From assembly GCA_035289385.1 (NCBI GenBank), contig DATDXI010000031.1, positions 1 to 57,227 of the forward strand: a stretch of 57,227 nucleotides of DNA, in the 5' to 3' direction. Positions 985 to 56,238 of the stretch are shown here, piece after piece. The position numbers and the translations under genes are program-made. Under the pieces are notes generated by a model, which was not told the DNA's origin, made no database searches, and worked only from the letters and a program-made list of their open reading frames with translations. Position 1 is the first letter of the stretch. Every line of letters starts with the position of its first letter. This stretch comes from Candidatus Nanoarchaeia archaeon. Its GTDB lineage: Archaea; Nanobdellota; Nanobdellia; Woesearchaeales; GW2011-AR9.

Positions 985-1202
985 GTACGTATTTAGTTCC
1001 ACAACAAAAATAGTGGCATTGACCTGCAAGAGCTCACTCTTGCTCGCTCAGGTCACGGAAAATTCAGCCTGCCTCTCAGAATAAAAGCAATGATCATGTG
1101 TTGATTTAAGCATATGGTCAGGCAAGTTATCTTATTTTCAAAGTTCTTAATGAATTTTCCCTCTTGACCTTGCCACTATTTTCAACCGAACTAAATACGG
1201 AC
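985..1202 (+). mobile_element. MITE-like element, copy 1 (218 bp, with an extra 32-nt palindromic insert at 1019-1050)
   Basis: Inverted termini GTACGTATTTAG / CTAAATACGGAC and subterminal AAAATAGTGGCA / TGCCACTATTTT. Flanked by the 8-bp duplication CATCTTCT (977-984) / CATCTTTT (1203-1210). Homologous to the copies at 22303, 49335, 52892 and 56019. Confidence 0.9.
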
Positions 1203-5793: not shown

Positions 5794-6162
5794 AACAATG
5801 ATGTCTAAAGAACATATCGAAAGAAACCTACTACTTGTCTTTGTTGGGATTATCTTCTGTTCGACTAACCAAAAAATAGACTAATTTGTAATAAATATGT
5901 GGCTACTATTAGTACTACTCTGATATACCTATTTTCATTAAAAAGGATTGACCTAAACAACACAAGACAAGGGTTCCGTTTAGTAAACGACTATTTAATA
6001 TCAGCTGTTCATTGTCGGGTGGAAATAGCCTCTTTTAAACCAAAAAAAACAAAAAGTTTATTAATAACCATTCTTTTTAAGACTTAACATGATCCCAAGT
6101 GTTCCTACGGGGACGCTTGATGAACCTATTTTCTAAAAGAGATTGGTGGTAGGTAATTTTTA

Positions 6163-13297: not shown

Positions 13298-13426
13298 CTT
13301 TTCTTCAGTACTTTACTTATTTATAAATTTTTTTCCACTAGTAGTTACATATCCTATGGGCTTAGACAGAACTAAATATGTACTCAAATCCAAAATATTT
13401 ATTAAGCTGAAGAATCTATCTGCCTT

Positions 13427-20279: not shown

Positions 20280-21449
20280 TCACCCCTTCTCTCCACTCAG
20301 TACCTTTACTATCCTAAATAGTCCTATCCAGAAGGGGCTGAGGAAGAGGGTTAAGCCGATAGTGACGATAACGAGCTGGTAGGAAAATATAGGGAGCAAG
20401 CCCAGCTTTAATCCCATGGCGGCAATGATGAAACTGAATTCTCCAATCTGGGCAAGCATCGATCCGGAATACAAACTTTCTGGCCAGCTTTCACCAAAAT
20501 AGCGGAAGATGACGGAGTTGATGAAGGTATTGATCAGGAAAACAACGGCTACTAATAAGGCAATCAAACGAATATTCTCTTTTAGAAAGGAGGCATCGAG
20601 AAGCATGCCTATGGAGGCGAAGAACAGTGCTACAAAGAGCACCCTAAATGATTGAAGGCTGCCTTTAACCCAATGCGTTTCTTTCGTTTTAGCGATGACC
20701 ATCCCTGCTAGAAAAGCACCAAGAGCGGCAGAAAGATGGAATAAGGATGCTAATGCTGCCAAGCCAAAACAAGCGATCAAGGCAGCAAAGATCTGTAGTT
20801 CATAATCCACTTGGAAGCGATTCTTGAAGGGGATGGTTATCTCTGAATGATTGACGAGATATTTTGCCAACAGGACGAATAATGTTACTCCGATACATTG
20901 AAGAAATAGGGCTGAGAAGGTGATGTTTTCTGATCCCAATAATGAAACGATGATCAGCAATGGGGCAACAGCGATGTCCTGAACAAGCAGGATGCTGACG
21001 ATCTGCTTTCCTCTCTTATGCTGAAGCTCTTTTTTATCTTCAAGGATTTTTATTAAGATGGCAGTACTGCTTAAGCTGATGACAAAACCAAGCAGCAGAA
21101 CTTGGCTGGCACTCCAGTGAAAAAAGTAGCCAAATAAGGACATCATGGCAATACTCAGCAGGATCTGAAGATTTGTTCCCATGATAGCTGTACGCCAGTT
21201 GGAAAGGATCTCTGGCAGTGATACTTCCATTCCGATAAAGAATAGTAGCAAGATAATTCCTATTTCTCCCAGCTTGGAGATAGCATCATTGCTGGTAACC
21301 CAGCCTAATCCGGATGGACCGATAAGCATGCCGGTAAGGATATAGGCGATGATCGATGGCTGTTTAAAGTAACGGAGAATACCTCCTGTGATGACGATGA
21401 TTAGCGATCCCATCAGGATTGTTAAAATCAAAGAATTTTCCGCTGCCAT
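20280..21449 (-). CDS. cation:proton antiporter (CPA2/Kef-type membrane domain)
   Basis: 389 aa, about 12 TM helices, typical Na+/H+ exchanger family sequence. Confidence 0.85.
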   Translation of the reverse strand: MAAENSLILTILMGSLIIVITGGILRYFKQPSIIAYILTGMLIGPSGLGWVTSNDAISKLGEIGIILLLFFIGMEVSLPEILSNWRTAIMGTNLQILLSIAMMSLFGYFFHWSASQVLLLGFVISLSSTAILIKILEDKKELQHKRGKQIVSILLVQDIAVAPLLIIVSLLGSENITFSALFLQCIGVTLFVLLAKYLVNHSEITIPFKNRFQVDYELQIFAALIACFGLAALASLFHLSAALGAFLAGMVIAKTKETHWVKGSLQSFRVLFVALFFASIGMLLDASFLKENIRLIALLVAVVFLINTFINSVIFRYFGESWPESLYSGSMLAQIGEFSFIIAAMGLKLGLLPIFSYQLVIVTIGLTLFLSPFWIGLFRIVKVLSGEKG

Positions 21450-21463
21450 CGTGGGCAGATGAA
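21394..21463. repeat. 70-bp direct repeat, copy A (covers the antiporter start codon and first 19 codons)
   Basis: 64/70 identical to 23130-23199 by hand alignment. Confidence 0.9.
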
Positions 21464-22235: not shown

Positions 22236-22302
22236 ACACTATCAACTAACTACAAAGCTTAAAAATGTTAGAGATAACGATAGATAACTAGTACGAAGAC
22301 TA

Positions 22303-22486
22303 GTACGTATTTAGTTCCACGACAAAAATAGTGGCAGATCGTAAAATCCAGCCTGACTTTACGTGTAAAGTAATGATAAAGTATTTATTTTAAGCTAAAG
22401 TCAGGCAACTAGACATATCTCACGAAGCTCTTAATGGATTTTACCTCTTGACCAAGCCACTATTTTCAACCGAACTAAATGCGTAC
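22303..22486 (+). mobile_element. MITE-like element, copy 2 (184 bp)
   Basis: Termini GTACGTATTTAG / CTAAATGCGTAC. Perfect 8-bp duplication GAAGACTA at 22295-22302 and 22487-22494. Confidence 0.95.
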
Positions 22487-22530
22487 GAAGACTAGAAAAT
22501 AATATAAGTGAAGGTGTTATTGCTTTTGTT

Positions 22531-23127
22531 ATGGTTCTCGTTGATGGGAAGGAATTTCTGGATGCAAATAGGCTTCTGCTTGATTCATACAGATTAGCCA
22601 GAATGGTCCTGTTGTCAGAATTTAAACCGACGTTTATGATCGGCATCTGGCGCGGAGGCACGCCGATAGGCATCGCGGTCCAAGAATATTTAGCAGCCCA
22701 TGGTGTTTCTACTGATCATATTGCAATTAGAACTTCGGGATACCGTGCAGGAATTGACCAGCGGGAAGATGCTGTTGCCGTCCATGGTTTAGAATATATG
22801 GTTGAGCATGCTAATGCTTCTGACCGTCTGCTGATCGTCGATGATGTTTGGGATAAAGGCAGAAGCATCCAAGCTGTTAAGGAAACCTTGGAACGACGGA
22901 TGCGCAGGAATATTCCCGCGGACATCAAGGTGGCGACAATCCATTATAAGCCTAACCGGAATGAAATGAACGGAAAACCAGACTTTTATCTCTATGAGAC
23001 AGATGCCTGGTTGATTTATCCGCATGAATTGCATGGTCTTTCTACAGAGGAGATCAGGAAAGGCAAAGGGTATGCGGTCGCTGATCTGATGGTTCCAGAG
23101 CGGCTTGTTGGGAAGGATACTCCGTAA
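22531..23127 (+). CDS. phosphoribosyltransferase (purine PRT-like)
   Basis: PRPP-binding loop LLIVDDVWDKGRS. Confidence 0.8.
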   Translation: MVLVDGKEFLDANRLLLDSYRLARMVLLSEFKPTFMIGIWRGGTPIGIAVQEYLAAHGVSTDHIAIRTSGYRAGIDQREDAVAVHGLEYMVEHANASDRLLIVDDVWDKGRSIQAVKETLERRMRRNIPADIKVATIHYKPNRNEMNGKPDFYLYETDAWLIYPHELHGLSTEEIRKGKGYAVADLMVPERLVGKDTP

Positions 23128-23129
23128 TC

Positions 23130-23199
23130 ACGATGTTCAGTGATCCTATCAGGATTGTTAAAATCAAAGAATTTTCTGCTGCCATCGTGGGCTGATGAA
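23130..23199. repeat. 70-bp direct repeat, copy B (orphan copy of the antiporter 5' end)
   Basis: The minus strand reads ATG GCA GCA GAA AAT..., giving MAAENSLILTILIGSLNIVIT against the true MAAENSLILTILMGSLIIVIT. No gene body follows. Confidence 0.9.
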
Positions 23200-23835: not shown

Positions 23836-24558
23836 TTAGATCTTCCCCACTAAGTGTAATCCTGGCTTCAATGTTTCCTTGCCTGGCTGCCAGTTTGCTG
23901 GACAGACTTCTCCGCCATGTTCACGGACAAATTTCGCTGCTTTGATCTTTCTTAGAAGTTCTGCGCTGCTTCTGCCGATGCTGTTGTCATGGATTTCAAA
24001 TGCTTTTAAAACTCCATCAGGGTCGATGATGAATGTTCCACGTAAGCTTAGTCCTTCATGATGGATATAGGTGCCGTAAGCCTTGCAGATACTTCCCGTA
24101 GGGTCAGCGACCATGGGAAACTTGATTTTTTTGATGGTTGGTGAGTTATCCCACCATGCTTTATGGACGAAAACGGTGTCTGTGGATATGCTTAACACTT
24201 CAGCGCCTAATTTCTTGAATTCATCATAATTATCTGCTAAATCTCCCAGTTCTGTTGGGCAGATAAAGGTGAAATCGGCAGGATAAAAGACTAATACCAC
24301 CCATTTTCCACGATAATGGTCAAGCCTTACTTGCTTTACTTCATTGTTTTGGAAAGCCTGAGCCGCAAAATTGGGGGCCGGCCTATTGATCTCTAACCAT
24401 TCTGGAGATTGTTCTTTACAGCATCCTTCTTCCATCGTTTCTTCTTTACAACATCCTTCTTTCATTGTTCCTTCTTGGCAACATCCTTTTTCCATTGTTT
24501 CTTCTTTACAGCATCCTACCATTGTATGTTCCTCCACAGCATCTACTTGGCCCTTCAT
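23836..24558 (-). CDS. typical 2-Cys peroxiredoxin (AhpC/Prx1-like) with a Cys-rich N-terminal repeat extension
   Basis: Peroxidatic FTFICPTE and resolving EVCPANW motifs. N-terminal 4 x GCCKEETMEK-type repeat. Confidence 0.9.
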   Translation of the reverse strand: MKGQVDAVEEHTMVGCCKEETMEKGCCQEGTMKEGCCKEETMEEGCCKEQSPEWLEINRPAPNFAAQAFQNNEVKQVRLDHYRGKWVVLVFYPADFTFICPTELGDLADNYDEFKKLGAEVLSISTDTVFVHKAWWDNSPTIKKIKFPMVADPTGSICKAYGTYIHHEGLSLRGTFIIDPDGVLKAFEIHDNSIGRSSAELLRKIKAAKFVREHGGEVCPANWQPGKETLKPGLHLVGKI

Positions 24559-27529: not shown

Positions 27530-30097
27530 ATGAAAATAATACCGTTAATGATTTCTTTGTTGGTTGTGCTGCTGTCAGTTGCTGCTTTGGCTGAAGTCGG
27601 TGATGGTAGTCCTGGAGATATAACTATAACTGATGAAGGAAGTGATAGTGGAGATGAAGAAGGTATTGATGATGCTTTGACTGGTACTGATGATGTTCTT
27701 CCGAGCTCAGATGATAGTGCTGTTGATTCAGAAGATTCTGATGATTCTATTATGGATGATGATTTTGGATCAATTTCTGATGGACAAAATGATGCATCTG
27801 CTGAAGAAGCAGGCAGTGATGATGAATCTAGTAATGAAGGATCAGATTCATTTGATGAAGAATTTTCTAGTGTTATTGAAGAAGATATCTATCAGGATGT
27901 AGATGATGTCGCTTTAGAAGGGGAGGCTGGATTGACACCAGACAGCTCATTCTATGTTTTGGAAAATCTTGTGGAATCTGTTCTTGTTGGTGATGATCCG
28001 GTGAAAGCCTTAGAGTATAAAGAGGAGAAGATCTTAGAATTACAGGAGATGGTTGATCAAGGAGATGAAGAAGCTGCGGAGAAAGTATTGGAAAGAGTTG
28101 AGAAGTATAATGAGATCATCAAGAGAGAAGTTTCTCCAGATATGGAAAAGCAAGTGAGGGAAAGCAGTAAGGCGGTTAAAGGTATTTTGGAAGGATTAGA
28201 TTTAGAGGGTGATGAGTGGGAGGATATTCAAGAAAAGGTTGACGAGAATGCTAAAGAAGAAGATAAGATAGCCTTAGCTGCGAAAGTCTCTAAGAAAATA
28301 TCTGAGCTCTGTGAAGCTCTTTCGTCATTAGATCCATTGGAGTATTCAAAGGTTTGCCGGACTGGTGATGAAGCCCCTCAGTGGAAAAGAGACCAAGATA
28401 GGGAGTTGACGGCTGAACAGGAAAAGGAAGCAAAGAAATTTTTTGAGATAATGTCTAGCTGTTATCAGAATCCAGCAGAATGTAAATGTGAGGATATTTC
28501 CATAAAACCATTTGCGGAGCAATGTGCAGTTATTGCTCCTTTGGCTGCGGAATGTGAATCTGGCAATGAAGAAGCCTGTAAGAAGATGGATGATATCGGT
28601 GATCCCATTGACTTACTGCCAGATTATCTCCAAGATGTTATGGCAGATGTCGAAGATAGATATGGAGAAGCGAAGCATGACTTATTTATGCCTCCTGAAT
28701 GTGTTGAGGAAGGCGCTTTAACCAAAGAAGCCTGCTTTAAGGTCATGTTTCGCTTAAATGCGCCTCCAGAATGTCAGGAAGCATTAGAAGCGGGAAAAAT
28801 TGATCCAAAAAATGAGCGTGAAGCACGGGCAGCATGTGAAGAAATTATGTTTACGGCTAATGCCCCTGAGGAATGTCTTGAAGCAGGATTGAAAGATCAT
28901 CGTGACTGTGAAAGATTCATGTTCAAGCTTGATGCACCACAAGAGTGTTTGGATGCGGGCTTAACCGGTTCAGGCAGAGATGACTGGAAGAAATGTGAAG
29001 CCATCCGTTTTAAGCTTGATGCTCCAGAAGAATGTGTTGAAGCTGGCTTAACTGGTTCTGGCAGGGATGATTGGAGAAAATGTGATGCCATCCGATTTAG
29101 GCTAGATGCTCCACAGGAATGTCTTGATGCTGGAATAGATGGAACAGGAAAAGAGGATTGGAAGAAGTGTGAGCTCATCAAATTTAAACTAGAAGCGCCT
29201 CAGGAATGTTTAGATGCAGGGTTAACTGGTTCTGGCAGAGACGATTGGAAGAAATGTGAGAAGATACGATTCCTCCTAGACGCGCCAGAAGAATGTAAGC
29301 AGTTTGCTGATAAGCGTGATCCTTGGAAGGCCTGTCAACCAGTGCAGTTTAAGATGGATGCTCCTCAAGAATGTCTAGATGCTGGTCTTGATGGGACAGG
29401 GAGAGATGACTGGAAGAAGTGTGATAAGATCCGGATGGCCATGGAACAGCAGCAGCGTCCAGAAGGTGATCAGCGTGAAGGAGACTTTAGGCCAGATGAT
29501 CGGCGTGGAGAATTTCCTGGAAAAGAAGGTGAGAGGAGAGGTGATTTCCCACAGGAAGATCAGCGTGGACAACAGCAAGAAGATCAATGCCGTGATTGTT
29601 CTCAGAAATGTGGAGATAGGAGATGGAATTGTAATAATGGGCAATGTGAGTGCTTTGATGATGGGGATGATAGAGATGAAAGTCCTTCGGGGGATGATCA
29701 TCCAAGTGATTCTGGCAGCTTTGATTCTGATGATAGTCGTGATGATAGTGGCTCCAGCAGTGATTCTGGGAGTTCAGATTCAAGTGATGGTGGGTCTTCT
29801 GATAGCGGCAGTTCTGGATCAAGTGGTGATTCTGGGAGTTCAGATTCAAGCGATGGTGGATCTTCTGATAGTGGCAGTTCTGGATCAAGTGGTGATTCTG
29901 GATCAGGAGATAGCGGTTCTTCTGGCGGAGATTCTGGCTCAAGTGGAGATAGTGGCGGCTCAGAAGCATCTAGTGAGAGTTCCGGCGATAGTGTTACCGG
30001 ATCTGCCGTAAGAATCTTTAACCCAACCGGATCGGCGGTAAAGATATTTGATCCTTTAGGAGAGAAAAGATTTAGGGAACTTGGAAGATTCAGGTAA
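27530..30097 (+). CDS. secreted, highly acidic, cysteine-repeat protein (855 aa)
   Basis: Signal peptide MKIIPLMISLLVVLLSVAALA, a D/E/S-rich N-terminal region, 8-9 repeats of about 33 aa (F-K-L-D-A-P-Q-E-C-L-D-A-G-L-T-G-S-G-R-D-D-W-K-K-C) and an S/G/D low-complexity tail. Confidence 0.8.
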   Translation: MKIIPLMISLLVVLLSVAALAEVGDGSPGDITITDEGSDSGDEEGIDDALTGTDDVLPSSDDSAVDSEDSDDSIMDDDFGSISDGQNDASAEEAGSDDESSNEGSDSFDEEFSSVIEEDIYQDVDDVALEGEAGLTPDSSFYVLENLVESVLVGDDPVKALEYKEEKILELQEMVDQGDEEAAEKVLERVEKYNEIIKREVSPDMEKQVRESSKAVKGILEGLDLEGDEWEDIQEKVDENAKEEDKIALAAKVSKKISELCEALSSLDPLEYSKVCRTGDEAPQWKRDQDRELTAEQEKEAKKFFEIMSSCYQNPAECKCEDISIKPFAEQCAVIAPLAAECESGNEEACKKMDDIGDPIDLLPDYLQDVMADVEDRYGEAKHDLFMPPECVEEGALTKEACFKVMFRLNAPPECQEALEAGKIDPKNEREARAACEEIMFTANAPEECLEAGLKDHRDCERFMFKLDAPQECLDAGLTGSGRDDWKKCEAIRFKLDAPEECVEAGLTGSGRDDWRKCDAIRFRLDAPQECLDAGIDGTGKEDWKKCELIKFKLEAPQECLDAGLTGSGRDDWKKCEKIRFLLDAPEECKQFADKRDPWKACQPVQFKMDAPQECLDAGLDGTGRDDWKKCDKIRMAMEQQQRPEGDQREGDFRPDDRRGEFPGKEGERRGDFPQEDQRGQQQEDQCRDCSQKCGDRRWNCNNGQCECFDDGDDRDESPSGDDHPSDSGSFDSDDSRDDSGSSSDSGSSDSSDGGSSDSGSSGSSGDSGSSDSSDGGSSDSGSSGSSGDSGSGDSGSSGGDSGSSGDSGGSEASSESSGDSVTGSAVRIFNPTGSAVKIFDPLGEKRFRELGRFR
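29762..29893 (+). repeat. 66-nt tandem duplication inside the S/G/D tail coding region
   Basis: Units 29762-29827 and 29828-29893 differ at 3 positions (hand alignment). Confidence 0.85.
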
Positions 30098-48716: not shown

Positions 48717-49346
48717 ATGATACAATCAAAAAAATCGTTAGAGCTGGAGTTAAGCAAGCTAAAGGTCTTTGAAAAGCCATCTCTTCAGCTGGAACAATAT
48801 GCCACCCCTAGTCATATCGCTGCAGATTGGATCTGGATCATGGCCATGAGGGGAGAAGTTATGGGAAGAACCATCCTTGATGCAGCTGCCGGTCCGGGAA
48901 TTTTAGGCCTGGGATTATTGTTGATGGGTGCTAAAAAAGTGTATTTTGTTGACAAAGATCCAGTAATTTTACAGGTTTGTAGTGATAATTACCATCAAAT
49001 TAAAGAGGAATATGAAGTTGGAGAAGCAGAGTTTATTACGTCAGACATCAGCTTGTTCGATGAGCATGTTGATCTTGTCGTGCAGAATCCGCCATTTGGC
49101 ACGAAAGATGAGCATATCGACAAACTCTTTTTAGAAAAAGCATTTGTTGCTGCACCATTAGTGTATAGTATGCATAAATTCTCTACAAAACAATTTGTGG
49201 AAGCGATCAGTAAGGATTATGGATTTATGATTACGGGAGTCTGGCGTTATGAATTTCCGATCAAAGCGCAGTTTTCTTTTCATAAGAAGCTGGTAAGGAA
49301 TATTGATGTGGGATTGTGGAGAATGGAAAAGAAGGTACGTATTTAG
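48717..49346 (+). CDS. METTL5-like N6-adenine/RNA methyltransferase
   Basis: Motif I ILDAAAGPGILG and motif IV VVQNPPFGT. The final V-R-I-stop is encoded by MITE copy 3. Confidence 0.85.
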   Translation: MIQSKKSLELELSKLKVFEKPSLQLEQYATPSHIAADWIWIMAMRGEVMGRTILDAAAGPGILGLGLLLMGAKKVYFVDKDPVILQVCSDNYHQIKEEYEVGEAEFITSDISLFDEHVDLVVQNPPFGTKDEHIDKLFLEKAFVAAPLVYSMHKFSTKQFVEAISKDYGFMITGVWRYEFPIKAQFSFHKKLVRNIDVGLWRMEKKVRI

Positions 49347-49571
49347 TTTGGTTGAAAATAGTGGCAAGGTCAAGAGGTAAAATCCATAAAGAGCTTCGTA
49401 AGATCATAAAAATCTAGAGATTTTTAGGATGCAGAAATCAGAGAGATTTCTTGCATAAGTCTAGTTGCGAGGCTTTACGCTTAAACAGATAGTTATCATA
49501 TGGTTCTTAATGAAAGCCTCACTGGATTTTACGACCTGCCACTATTTTCTTTTATCGAACTAAATACGTAC
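49335..49571 (-). mobile_element. MITE-like element, copy 3 (237 bp long variant, inverted orientation)
   Basis: Termini GTACGTATTTAG / CTAAATACGTAC. 8-bp duplication AAAAGAAG (49327-49334) / AAAAGAAA (49572-49579). Confidence 0.95.
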
Positions 49572-52891: not shown

Positions 52892-53127
52892 CTACGTATT
52901 TAGTTTCATAAAGAAAATAGTGGCAGGTCGGAAAATTCAGCGAGACTTTACGTAGGAAAGGAATGAAAAACACTATATTTAAGCTCAAAGTCTCGCAGCT
53001 AATCTTGTGCAAGAAATCTCTATGATTTCTGCATCCTAAAAATCTGTTGATTTTTATGATCTTACGAACCTCTTAATGAATTTTCCATCTTGACCAAGCC
53101 ACTATTTTAATAGAACTAAATACGTAC
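52892..53127 (+). mobile_element. MITE-like element, copy 4 (236 bp long variant)
   Basis: Termini CTACGTATTTAG / CTAAATACGTAC. 8-bp duplication TATTTCTT (52884-52891) / TATATCTT (53128-53135). The right duplication overlaps the leuS stop codon by 2 nt. Confidence 0.95.
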
Positions 53128-53133
53128 TATATC

Positions 53134-55971
53134 TTACTCTAGCAATATCCCAACTTTACCCGGCCAAGCCTGTTTCGCTTTCGCTTCAGTAGAATCTTCT
53201 GCTGAAACTATCTTGATTTCGCAGCCAGCTTCTTTTGCTAGAAACTCCTTAGCTTCCTTCATCACGTTCAATTCATCTTCCGCTGATGTAACATGGCTCG
53301 GCAGCTTTGAGACATCCTTTACTATAGCCTGAACAATCTTGGTAACTTCTTTACCCTTCAGCTTCATCTGCTCTGCTTCCAAGACTTTTCTCATGATCTC
53401 TCCGATATCTCTGGTTATTTTTATTTCTGAGGACAATATCTTGAAGAGTTCATACAACCAGCTCTCTGCAATAAAAAGAGTGCAGGCCTTTACTTTCTCC
53501 ACCTTGGCCAGCTTTACGACTTGCCTGATGCCTTCAAGAGTAGACTTGACCAATTCTTCCCCAGCTTCAGCTGAATGATCTATCTTTTCCTGCACCACCT
53601 GCGGCCAGGCTTGAGTAGAAGCTAGTTCTCCATTACTTAGTTTTCCATCACTATTAAGCTCTTCACTCAGATGAGGAGTGATGGGATTCATGATTCTAGA
53701 CCAGATACTGATATATTCCTCAATAACCTGCCGGTTGCTTCCTCCCCTCCTAGAATACCAGCGAAAGTTATCATAGAAGGTAAAATAAGCGATAGAAGCA
53801 AGCTCGCGCAGATCATATTTTTCCATAACAGTATGGATTTTCTTCAGCTGCTGATGCGCCATGGAAATCAGCCAGCGGTCAATGACGGCTTCTTCTTTGT
53901 TAGCAATTTTCCTAAGATCTTGACATACTACAAAGATCCTTTCCAGAGCTTGCTTGTAGTTTAAGACAACATCTTCATCCCATTGCACATCAACATGAGG
54001 ACTGGCGATATGGGCATAGTACAACCTCATGGCGTCAACACCATACTTGGCTATCGCTTCAGGAATAGGCTCAGCGCCACCTTTACTTTTAGAGATCTTG
54101 CTTCCTTTACCGATGACCCACCAGTTGACAAAAATTCCTCGTGGCCACTTCTCTTCTGGAAGAATAGCTATGTGATTCATCAAAAAGACAGGGAAATGCA
54201 CCGTCTGATGCTCTTTTCCACCGAGATTCATATCTAATGGATAGAAGTAATCAAATTCTTCCTTGATCGGTTTCCATTCTTTCTTCCCTTCACCTTTTCC
54301 CAGAAAGACATAGTCAAAAAATTCTTCCGTAAGGTCCTGGCTGGAGATGGTACTATTGTTAACATATTTTGAAACGATATAGTATGCCGGATAAAGCGTA
54401 GAATCGCTGATCGGCTCAACAGTCCAGGTTTCATCAAAAGGGAACTTGCTTCCCAACCAGGTTCCTAATCTGGCACAAGCCCTATCCTGGAACCAATCTA
54501 AGACAGAGGGCAGATTATGATGATATTCTGTAGGAAATATCCTCATCTCTCTAGCCTGCTCTTTGCTGCGTTCGGTAAGCTCTTGGTCAGAATATTTGAT
54601 AAACCATTGGTCATCAACTCTCTTGATAACAACTTGCGAACCACAACGGCAGACAACTTCCTCACTAAGGTCATGAAAGAGGTCTGCTTGACCTTTTTCA
54701 ATAAGTTCTGCTTTCACTAATTCCTTTGCTTCTTCTACATTCTTGCCGCTATATTTCCCGCTGATCTCTAGCATAATGCCAGTATGATGCTCTGCGCGAT
54801 AAATTTCACGTTTCGCTTCTTCTAACTTTTCAACCTCTGTCTGGCTGGTGATGTTCATCTTCTTGCAGATCTCTTCTGCGGGATGAACACCCCAATCTTT
54901 TGTTTTTATTAAGGGGATAGGGTAAATGGCTTGCACCTCTTTCTGGTTAAGCCTATATCTTTTGCATTCAGCACTATTTTTTTTGATATCTTCCAAGGCA
55001 ATCCAATCATAAGGAGCGTGGCTAGGTACGCAAGTGACGATGCCAGAACCTATCTTTGGATCGACGAAAGATGCAGGCAGGATCATAATCTCTCGCTCAG
55101 CTCCTGGAGCGAGAGCCAATTGGCCGATCATCGCCTTGATATCAACATCACCTTTTAAGATAACATCATCTTTTTGATACTTTATCTTCTCTGCAGCTTC
55201 CTTGCTGAGTACCCATATTTCACCATCCACCTCTATCCGAACATATTCAGCATAAGGATTTATCCAGAGATTTGTCTGGCCATAGACCGTTTCAGGTCGT
55301 AGCGTAGCAGCAACGAGGTATTCTTTTCCAAGCTTAAATTTCAATAAGGTATACTCATTCTTTTCCGCATTTCCACCCTTGGAGATGTCTGTTTCCGATG
55401 GATCGACAGCTACCGGACCGTCTTTGATGCAAGCAGTAGCAAAGTAGGGTTTCTGTACTAAAAGATCTTTCTGCTTCAGTTTCCTGAACTGCCACTGGAT
55501 GAATTTTTCATAATCCGGAAATGTCGTGCAGGTAAATCTCTCCCAGTCTGCTAAGAAGCCAAATTTTTTCCAATATTGGTTCACGTAAACATCATTAAAA
55601 TACTCAATAACCTTGCTTGGCTCTATCAATTGCTTGATCTTTTCTGATGGGCAGCCATTTCTCTGCAGATATTCTAGCCACGTCTTATCCTTATTCTTGA
55701 CTTTATTGGCAAAAGCTATGGCCTGATTGCCTGAAGCGTGTGTGCCAACAGGAAACAATACTTCTTTGCCTTGCAGACGTTCAAAGCGGCAGATGGCATC
55801 AGTATAAGAAAAGCCGCGCATATGGCCAACGTGAAGAAAACCTGAAATACCGGGATAAGCAAAGATCATCATAAATTTCTCTTTTTCCTTCCTGACTGAA
55901 GCTCTGCCTATCTGAGCTGTTTCCCAGGCTTTCTGCCACTTCTCTTGGATGATATTCCAGTCTAATGCCAT
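53134..55971 (-). CDS. leuS: leucyl-tRNA synthetase, archaeal type
   Basis: 945 aa from MALDWNIIQEKW. HVGH (HIGH-type) and KISKSKG (KMSKS-type) motifs. The track's 52 extra N-terminal codons run into MITE copy 5. Confidence 0.95.
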   Translation of the reverse strand: MALDWNIIQEKWQKAWETAQIGRASVRKEKEKFMMIFAYPGISGFLHVGHMRGFSYTDAICRFERLQGKEVLFPVGTHASGNQAIAFANKVKNKDKTWLEYLQRNGCPSEKIKQLIEPSKVIEYFNDVYVNQYWKKFGFLADWERFTCTTFPDYEKFIQWQFRKLKQKDLLVQKPYFATACIKDGPVAVDPSETDISKGGNAEKNEYTLLKFKLGKEYLVAATLRPETVYGQTNLWINPYAEYVRIEVDGEIWVLSKEAAEKIKYQKDDVILKGDVDIKAMIGQLALAPGAEREIMILPASFVDPKIGSGIVTCVPSHAPYDWIALEDIKKNSAECKRYRLNQKEVQAIYPIPLIKTKDWGVHPAEEICKKMNITSQTEVEKLEEAKREIYRAEHHTGIMLEISGKYSGKNVEEAKELVKAELIEKGQADLFHDLSEEVVCRCGSQVVIKRVDDQWFIKYSDQELTERSKEQAREMRIFPTEYHHNLPSVLDWFQDRACARLGTWLGSKFPFDETWTVEPISDSTLYPAYYIVSKYVNNSTISSQDLTEEFFDYVFLGKGEGKKEWKPIKEEFDYFYPLDMNLGGKEHQTVHFPVFLMNHIAILPEEKWPRGIFVNWWVIGKGSKISKSKGGAEPIPEAIAKYGVDAMRLYYAHIASPHVDVQWDEDVVLNYKQALERIFVVCQDLRKIANKEEAVIDRWLISMAHQQLKKIHTVMEKYDLRELASIAYFTFYDNFRWYSRRGGSNRQVIEEYISIWSRIMNPITPHLSEELNSDGKLSNGELASTQAWPQVVQEKIDHSAEAGEELVKSTLEGIRQVVKLAKVEKVKACTLFIAESWLYELFKILSSEIKITRDIGEIMRKVLEAEQMKLKGKEVTKIVQAIVKDVSKLPSHVTSAEDELNVMKEAKEFLAKEAGCEIKIVSAEDSTEAKAKQAWPGKVGILLE

Positions 55972-56018
55972 ATATAAGATGGAAATAAGTTGATGGTTTT
56001 TAAAGATTGCGTGGGTGG

Positions 56019-56201
56019 GTACGTATTTACTTCCATACCAAAAATAGTGGCAGGTCGTAAAATCCAGCGTGGCTGTATGTCGAACAGTAGTACATCTCTT
56101 TGTTTTGAGCAGAAAGCCACGCAACAAATCTTCTCTTACGAGGCTCTAAATGGATTTTACCTCTTGACCAAGCCACTATTTTAATAGAACTAAATATGTA
56201 C
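56019..56201 (+). mobile_element. MITE-like element, copy 5 (183 bp)
   Basis: Termini GTACGTATTTAC / CTAAATATGTAC. Perfect 8-bp duplication GTGGGTGG at 56011-56018 and 56202-56209. Confidence 0.95.
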
Positions 56202-56238
56202 GTGGGTGGTCGCTCTATTTCTTTATAACTTCTACATT

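Follow-up and report, generated by a model that had tools for sequence, protein, structure and literature searches.

The whole stretch of DNA analysed here (the window, 57,227 nt) has a G+C content of about 40%, carries archaeal genes, including those for an ATP-dependent DNA ligase and a class I LeuRS, and belongs to a Woesearchaeota-like DPANN archaeon. Here, we describe the characterization of five copies of one 184-bp repeat in this window, with 15-bp terminal inverted repeats (TIRs) and an 8-bp target duplication (TSD). Each copy opens with GTACGTATTTAGTT and closes with its reverse complement. The copies, numbered in order along the window, are listed below with the inserts and target duplications located in them.

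985-1202, plus strand: MITE copy 1, with its hairpin at 1067-1123 (GCCTG/CAGGC plus CC/GG)
1019-1055: nested self-folding insert of copy 1, 37 nt
22303-22486, plus strand: MITE copy 2, 184 bp long, to which the first-pass annotation of this DNA refers; nhmmer profile match of 181 bits, boundaries from the alignment
22295-22302 and 22487-22494: left and right TSD of copy 2, GAAGACTA, matching at 8 of 8 positions
49335-49571, minus strand: MITE copy 3, with hairpin arms at 49513-49522 / 49467-49476 and one T:G pair; its spacer holds the same 52-nt double-hairpin insert as copy 4
52892-53127, plus strand: MITE copy 4, with its hairpin at 52940-52996
53007-53058: double-hairpin insert of copy 4, 52 nt
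56019-56201, plus strand: MITE copy 5, with its hairpin at 56067-56122
56011-56018 and 56202-56209: TSD of copy 5, GTGGGTGG, a perfect 8-bp direct repeat

The first-pass annotation had reported that every copy forms an internal hairpin; its stem coordinates in copies 2, 3, 4 and 5 are all exact, and the shorter GCCTG/CAGGC stem that it gave for copy 1 is present at 1067-1071/1119-1123. The number of copies in 57 kb agrees with a published MITE census that places a Woesearchaea genome among the MITE-richest archaea, at 105 per Mb (PMC11602168). At 13330-13383, between two divergent ORFs, a lone and degenerate right end (CCACTA...AGAACTAAATATGTAC) is probably what remains of a sixth copy.

Several repeats of other kinds are also present in the window. 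A 76-nt segment over the start of a Na+/H+ exchanger gene (21388-21463) is repeated 1.7 kb away at 23124-23199 with 89% identity, and the two segments bracket MITE copy 2 together with a phosphoribosyltransferase gene. Tandem in-frame repeats occur at 28906-29433 and 29705-29880, as 87-nt and 66-nt units in an ORF of 855 aa (27530-30097) that is Ser/Gly/Asp-rich and contains DUF5667, and at 24412-24547, as 30-nt units in ORF 23836-24558.

Further copies were collected by exact-pattern scans of representative genomes and metagenomes, followed by a profile search over the fetched DNA. The scan of representative genomes found 7 full copies in the Candidatus Woesearchaeota groundwater MAG JACOZM01, and the metagenome scan found at least 117 loci, mostly out of two related samples; locus L107 overlaps the window end with 99% identity. 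In all fetched DNA, the profile search located the element at 87 places. Of these, 75 hold full-length copies; the 72 that are unique come mostly from groundwater metagenomes and from one Woesearchaeota genome. All copies entered the sample by an exact match of 17-19 nt to the right arm, which biases it to well-preserved copies. Fold and stem types were analysed in 68 copies, and covariation in the 47 copies without large inserts (alignment A2; MAFFT, structure-blind). Elements without inserts are 183-187 bp long.

These repeats are genuine copies of a MITE, a non-autonomous DNA transposon. Their TIRs (GTACGTATTTAGTTC / GAACTAAATACGTAC) are 15 bp long with 94.5% of cells paired, and the flanking 8 bp, which have no fixed sequence, agree fully in 35 of 67 copies and at 7 of 8 positions in another 10. 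One clean filled/empty pair was found, with the element at 5915-6099 of locus L118 and an empty site with a single GGAAGAAT near 1435 of locus L083, the two loci being 91% identical around the site. All copies are intergenic with zero ORF overlap, and the element has no coding capacity. The TIRs, the TSD of fixed length and the small, non-coding, dispersed copies by which a MITE is recognised are all found here, and the perfect duplications and the filled/empty pair bear out the earlier assignment to this class.

An autonomous parent was sought in about 875 kb of surrounding and fetched DNA, in which no pair of TIRs 0.4-4 kb apart encloses an ORF (orphan ends were also searched), no multi-copy (paralogous) ORF family was found, and no transposase or longer element with these ends was detected. 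Pfam identified no transposase domain among the window ORFs, and neither RAYT nor TnpA genes were encountered. A BLAST search with the element gave no match in plasmid and phage collections, and a scan of IMG/VR by arm pattern gave one chance match that is not a copy. At locus L089, an IS630/Tc1-like two-ORF transposase (462-1540 and 1698-1754) lies beside an orphan right MITE arm, the body of which points off from the transposase and toward a 171-aa ORF; this gene was rejected as the parent, as it is outside the adjacent orphan arm and the IS630 family makes TA duplications. An element of IS200/IS605 type (PATE, REP/REPIN) is ruled out by the TIRs and the 8-bp TSD, which likewise contradict the proposal that a hairpin-recognising HUH (IS200/IS605-type) transposase acts on the stem, and a Correia-type MITE is ruled out by an 8-bp TSD without fixed sequence. 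Terminal inverted repeats and a TSD fixed at 8 bp are usually the mark of DDE transposases, whose substrate is duplex DNA, and we know of no DDE transposase family that needs an internal single-strand hairpin. Apart from its parent, the element passes the tests for a MITE.

Consensus folding of 68 copies (RNAalifold) yielded the same structure on both strands, in which the hairpin is predicted to be one helix, P5, within a branched fold-back of the whole element. Copy 2 alone folds as a long branched fold-back, with z = -8.0 for DNA and -9.7 for RNA. The helices are listed below by element column, each with its coordinates in copy 2 where assigned (all on the plus strand).

P1, terminal repeat, columns 1-15/170-184: 5' strand GTACGTATTTAGTTC at 22303-22317, partner at 22472-22486
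P2, columns 23-33/155-165: 5' strand AAAATAGTGGC at 22325-22335, partner GCCACTATTTT at 22456-22466
P3, columns 35-38/149-152: adjoins an internal loop (1x2) and the CTCTT bulge listed next
Bulge CTCTT between P4 and P3: 22445-22449, conserved, 5 nt
P4, columns 39-48/134-143: 5' strand GTAAAATCCA at 22341-22350, partner TGGATTTTAC at 22435-22444
P5, hairpin with a 41-nt loop, columns 49-56/98-105: 5' arm GCCTGACTTTA at 22351-22361, 3' arm TAAAGTCAGGC at 22396-22406
P5 loop of copy 2: 22362-22395, AT-rich and divergent, with a conserved TTTAAG toward the 3' side
Spacer AACTAGACATATCTCACGAAGCTCTTAA: 22407-22434, conserved, mostly unpaired, 28 nt, with a 2-bp mini-stem

The P2 core is the best-conserved part of both arms (10 exact sites in the window vs 1.2 expected), and the CTCTT bulge, the 1x2 internal loop and a sharp stem/loop boundary are kept in all subfamilies. 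The 41-nt loop was rejected as a hidden extended stem (mean z vs shuffles of +0.24), and K-turn, BHB splicing motif, H/ACA, C/D box and attC were all rejected by eye because the defining sequence or geometry is absent from the bulges and loops. The two unpaired bases facing A34 (columns 153-154; AA at window positions 22454-22455 in copy 2) read AA in 44 copies and TT in 19, with almost no intermediates and with both states in every stem subfamily; the dinucleotide has flipped either recurrently or through recombination. The CpG in the terminal GTACGTA (columns 4-5 and 180-181, e.g. window positions 22306-22307 and 22482-22483) is a mutation hot spot, with TG or CA in its place in 22 of the 68 left ends and in 13 of the 68 right ends, the pattern expected of methylated-cytosine deamination at an ACGT or GTAC site.

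Pairing in P5 is kept by compensatory changes. In alignment A2, 97.9% of the cells of the 8-bp stem are paired, compared to 82.3% for shuffled partners (0/500) and 15-39% when the partner is slid by 1-3 columns, and the covariation score is 0.424 vs 0.161. The variable pairs are found as CG23/GC16/AU6, UA24/AU21 and AU35/GC11. Among the 68 copies, the 7-bp core is perfectly paired in 51, or in 58 with G:T allowed, and six perfectly paired stems occur (GCCTGAC, GCGAGAC, GCGAGGC, GCAAGGC, GCCTGAT and, in one copy only, GCGTGGC). Four different stems are found within this single 57-kb stretch of one genome. All four allele combinations occur at the variable pairs in columns 52 and 54, and the double substitutions in P5 number at least 5, or 8 on an NJ tree.

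The covariation that had been described for this hairpin is confirmed, and it is not peculiar to P5, as the interior covaries as a whole. Over the whole fold, 96.6% of cells are paired compared to 91.8% when shuffled (0/500) and 30-40% with slid partners, and double changes occur at 17 pairs, 4 of them in P5 (A2). Covariation in P4 is as strong as in P5 (TA/GC, AT/CG, CG/TA and AT/GC pairs), with the variants GTAAAATCCA/TGGATTTTAC, GGAAAATTCA/TGAATTTTCC and GTCAAATCTG/CAGATTTGAC and double changes at pairs 42/148, 43/147, 48/142, 50/141 and 51/140, and the spacer mini-stem changes from C-G to T-A in seven copies. P4 and P5 types combine in many ways among copies, and MI analysis shows strong subfamily linkage among stem positions and loop positions. 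Modules have evidently been shuffled between copies and the count of independent events is modest, since with strong subfamily structure and such shuffling the many concordant copies are not independent. Collecting more copies, the check put forward in the first-pass annotation, upheld pairing above chance, six stems and at least five double substitutions, and also brought out this strong subfamily structure.

Constraint is also seen within subfamilies. Among copies that share a 5' arm, diversity of the 3' arm is 0.03-0.09, compared to 0.16-0.48 for the loop and 0.17-0.26 for the spacer; relative to the loop it is lower by a factor of 3-10, and the 3' arm is conserved as much as the P2 arm core. 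In the oldest family, GCGAGAC, loop diversity is 0.48 and 3' arm diversity 0.028. The length of the hairpin is 56-58 nt in 61 of 64 copies, with loop sequence near saturation, which replaces the variable 35-45-nt loop of the original description; of the two loop motifs named there, TTTAAG is nearly invariant and ATGAT is subfamily-specific. P5 pairing is kept by something other than neutral decay, and the view that the structure itself is selected gains from the low 3' arm diversity and is tempered by the modest number of independent double substitutions (5-8).

Larger inserts inside copies are self-folding hairpins in every case (z of -2 to -6). They occupy few, fixed positions. The P2/P3 bulge can hold a hairpin of 37 nt and the spacer a double hairpin of 52 nt, and both strands of P4 can hold GTGACYTGCWAGC...GTCAC palindromes of 42-49 nt; such inserts were found at loci L005, L040, L056, L078, L080, L083, L086, L098 and L106. 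All 19 matches to the GTGAC modules are inside MITE copies. Other variants have the same arms and a different body (L119 1288-1461, which is the same as L041 12444-12617, and L043 6001-6165), one variant type has its interior replaced by GTGAC-type palindromes, and a 95-nt mini copy (L083 460-555) has the same arms and zero interior. With the same arms on different bodies, arms and interior behave as separable modules.

Element ends were also found at a fixed distance from host promoters, which are sharply defined in these genomes (TTTAWATA at -30 from the ATG, leaderless transcripts). Outward from either end of the element, the 8-bp TSD is followed by a 6-bp BRE-like sequence (A-rich positions 10-12) and then by the TATA box. 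Of 132 non-redundant flanks, 32 (24%) have this box beginning exactly at position 15, compared to 1.1% for intergenic positions chosen at random (p = 2e-33); up to 14 others have it at position 17, and each remaining position accounts for 0-4 flanks. This layout is present on at least one side of 40 of 71 elements, with 23 left and 21 right ends facing the promoter, and orientation relative to neighbouring genes is random, with no pattern. In over 20 copies, among them copies 2 and 5 of the window, the outward gene has its ATG at a distance of 45-47 nt, and tRNA genes or promoters are also targeted. The relevant flanks in the window are given below.

22487-22533: right flank of copy 2, with the host TATA-like box AATATAAG at 22501-22508, 15 nt from the element end
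From 22531, plus strand: gene downstream of AATATAAG
55969-56018: left flank of copy 5, with the LeuRS promoter (TATA at 55997-56004 and ATG at 55971, both on the minus strand)

The side opposite the promoter has a median of 65 nt of non-coding DNA, so shortage of space does not dictate the position. Single-base precision was also noted in the flanks of loci L004-L119. Integration seems to be directed to the upstream promoter edge, and the geometry suggests that it may be tethered to TBP/TFB. Our literature search found no account of base-precise promoter targeting by an archaeal transposon, and insertion 6 bp upstream of the TATA box (in the order TSD, BRE, TATA) would be the first found for archaeal transposons. 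In genomes of uncultured DPANN archaea, these MITE insertions offer a natural means of marking where promoters lie, and this side finding may outweigh that of the hairpin.

The strands of the interior appear to differ in the mismatches that they tolerate. Counted on a tree, mismatch events in P5 comprise 13 G:T vs 2 A:C (p=0.007; the copies are related and the numbers small), or 10 vs 2 without the terminal pair, and those in P4 comprise 19 G:T vs 13 A:C, compared to a symmetric count in P1 (about 24 vs about 24). The single T:G wobble that had been read as tolerated in one orientation of copy 3 is in this way general to the P5 stem. The G:T excess points to one strand folding alone: a duplex protein site, a cruciform or arm-to-arm copying is expected to give symmetry, and a single folded plus strand to give the bias observed. 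A biased interior with a symmetric P1 is what is expected if one interior strand folds and the termini act as duplex DNA. P5 folding energies favour the plus strand in 31 copies vs 4, and were given no weight because they are confounded by loop and terminal-mismatch terms and by relatedness. Among 51 copies at loci of at least 4 kb, 34 have the element plus strand on the strand that is locally richer in G (p=0.02, without independence between copies), and the count is 17 vs 8 in strongly skewed loci. This orientation hints at exposure of the plus strand on the lagging-strand template, which it fits if GC skew marks replication direction.

Our tentatively preferred reading, to which we give slightly less than even confidence, is that P5 is a cis-acting, strand-specific structural module kept by the element's own propagation, most probably as single-stranded DNA. 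On this reading, arms P1-P3 (about 40 bp each) would be ordinary double-stranded transposon ends, and the interior, comprising P4, P5 with its fixed-length 41-nt loop and the conserved 28-nt spacer, would be maintained as structure and not as sequence. The hairpin would be a cis-acting structural signal for the element's own propagation, and the lineages that keep transposing would be those whose single-stranded plus strand can still form P4 and P5. The folded form would most probably be single-stranded DNA exposed in replication or transposition, with a transcript as the second candidate. Pairing, compensatory changes, the strand bias of mismatches, conserved length and mobility are what was observed; that mobilisation is the selective agent and single-stranded DNA the folded molecule, we infer. 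Selection in cis would have each diverging lineage keep its own pairing, and a trans-acting product would not be so kept. The four stems that coexist in one genome argue against one sequence-specific protein partner, and the self-folding nature of all larger inserts was counted for a folded strand. Against a needed interior stands the mini copy without one, which has no recognisable TSD. The weakest link is the enzyme: no transposase was found in about 875 kb, and elements with TIRs and a TSD normally move as duplex DNA.

A possible though clearly less probable explanation is that the fold acts as RNA, with the P4-P5-spacer segment (about 105 nt) transcribed by read-through or from a non-canonical promoter and acting on behalf of the host or an unseen transposase, either as a regulatory RNA or as a 3' structure with a stabilising or terminating role. 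RNA pairing predicts the excess of G:T over A:C, and the presence of this bias in P4 and P5 and its absence from the terminal repeat look as if the interior alone were functional. The three-way junction with a single-stranded 28-nt spacer is like those of structured small RNAs, the RNA folding z of copy 2 is strongly negative, and the Bacillus repeat bcr1 offers a precedent, being transcribed with compensatory changes at the RNA level (PMC3184786). These points are countered by the apparent lack of a promoter. No element column on either strand has a median PWM score above 4 for an internal BRE/TATA, compared to 11.6 for real promoters, and TTTAAG was rejected as an internal TATA box, as it scores low and is not used at the promoter position in these genomes. 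With either end facing the promoter about equally often, read-through would yield the plus strand in only about half of copies. Rfam 15 gave no matches at gathering thresholds over the whole window, and inside the element gave only chance-level matches (E of 1.8 or above) in a search up to E 10. The suggestion of an element-borne small RNA with its own promoter is not supported by the promoter and Rfam results. In addition, the only matches to the spacer as an antisense sequence in 875 kb are other MITE copies, and a trans-acting RNA leaves the lineage-by-lineage pairing unexplained.

It is unlikely that the P5 (and P4) arms are half-sites of a dimeric protein that binds duplex DNA, either a transposase or a host factor, with subfamilies reflecting co-evolution of protein and site and with a hairpin that never forms. 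The same logic accounts for matching transposon ends, the constant 41-bp spacing of the arms fits a fixed protein geometry, and stem types are strongly structured by subfamily. At least six stems and three to four P4 variants in many combinations, several of them in one genome, would however demand many specificities at once, hairpin insertions of 37-52 nt are tolerated elsewhere in the interior, and a duplex site predicts G:T and A:C events in equal numbers.

A little less probable still is a process without selection, in which template switching or gene conversion within the molecule re-creates one arm as a copy of the other and a mutation in either arm is mirrored automatically. Rearrangements at the DNA level do occur in this family, as nested palindromic modules, shuffling of P4 and P5 modules and a 21-nt tandem duplication in L039, and the P4 double transversion TA -> GC arises 9 times on the tree, implausibly often, which suggests copying over point mutation. 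Yet such copying should erase the asymmetric CTCTT bulge, the 1x2 loop and the stem/loop boundary, all of which are conserved, predicts no mismatch strand bias, and leaves unexplained why the stem is less diverse than the loop and why loop length is fixed. A founder effect, in which a few ancient master copies had paired stems and inheritance overstates the statistics, draws on the strong MI linkage among stem and loop positions, the minimum of only five double substitutions and the single copy behind GCGTGGC, and is very improbable, as five double substitutions without any mismatched family left are unlikely under neutrality and the contrast between 3' arm and loop in the GCGAGAC family shows constraint within families too.

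A broader conjecture, which we consider doubtful, joins the cis-acting fold to the insertion sites: this would be a new kind of archaeal element, whose non-coding body has to fold strand-specifically into a branched structure to propagate and which integrates with single-base precision at the upstream BRE/TATA edge, via a TBP/TFB-bound or TBP-bent promoter. It is equally doubtful that the enzyme of such an element would be something other than a conventional resident IS transposase, of which none was found in the 875 kb.

MITEs are usually treated as decaying deletion derivatives in which the ends are the sole functional parts. Here, a MITE interior appears to be under long-term selection for structure, in genomes of about 1 Mb with roughly 90 copies per Mb, which makes this family a tractable case for studying what the folded body of a transposon does, be it in synapsis, in recognition of a single strand or as RNA.

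Among known systems, bcr1 of the Bacillus cereus group, reportedly studied by Klevan et al. in 2007 and by Kristoffersen et al. in 2011, is similar in several respects. A summary in PMC3184786 describes bcr1 as a non-autonomous mobile repeat of about 150-180 bp in which compensatory changes keep a branched or cruciform fold, and which is transcribed and has 5-bp direct repeats (PMC3184786). Both are small, multi-copy mobile repeats with short flanking direct repeats and compensatory changes. The bcr1 repeat is bacterial and has no sequence similarity to the element described here, which is archaeal with 15-bp TIRs and an 8-bp TSD. Like REP/REPIN sequences, this element conserves structure over sequence and shows compensatory hairpin change, and REPINs also have a strand-specific function as single-stranded DNA; unlike it, they are without DDE-type TIRs or TSD. 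REP/REPIN sequences are mobilised by RAYT (IS200/IS605-type HUH Y1) transposases. Correia elements of Neisseria (CREE/NEMIS) are MITEs of similar size with fold-back arms that lie beside genes and can affect transcription, but they have a TA duplication, 26-bp TIRs and an IHF site in place of the 8-bp TSD found here and, to our knowledge, no report has them maintaining an internal side hairpin through covariation. The attC sites of integrons are likewise imperfect palindromes with a variable centre and a conserved fold of which one strand is recognised, whereas this element has TIRs and a TSD and is without the R/L box consensus (RYYYAAC/GTTRRRY), integrase or cassette context. For the insertion site only, the likeness is to Ty3, and also to Ty1 and Tf1, which share insertion, independent of orientation, at a fixed, base-precise distance from a promoter element to which TBP and a TFB/Brf-type factor bind. 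In yeasts, Ty3, Ty1 and Tf1 direct integration to promoters bound by TFIIIB/TBP. They are LTR retrotransposons with integrases, in contrast to a small DNA transposon in an archaeon. If insertion is indeed targeted via a TBP/TFB-bound or TBP-bent promoter, this MITE would be an archaeal counterpart of Ty3/TFIIIB.
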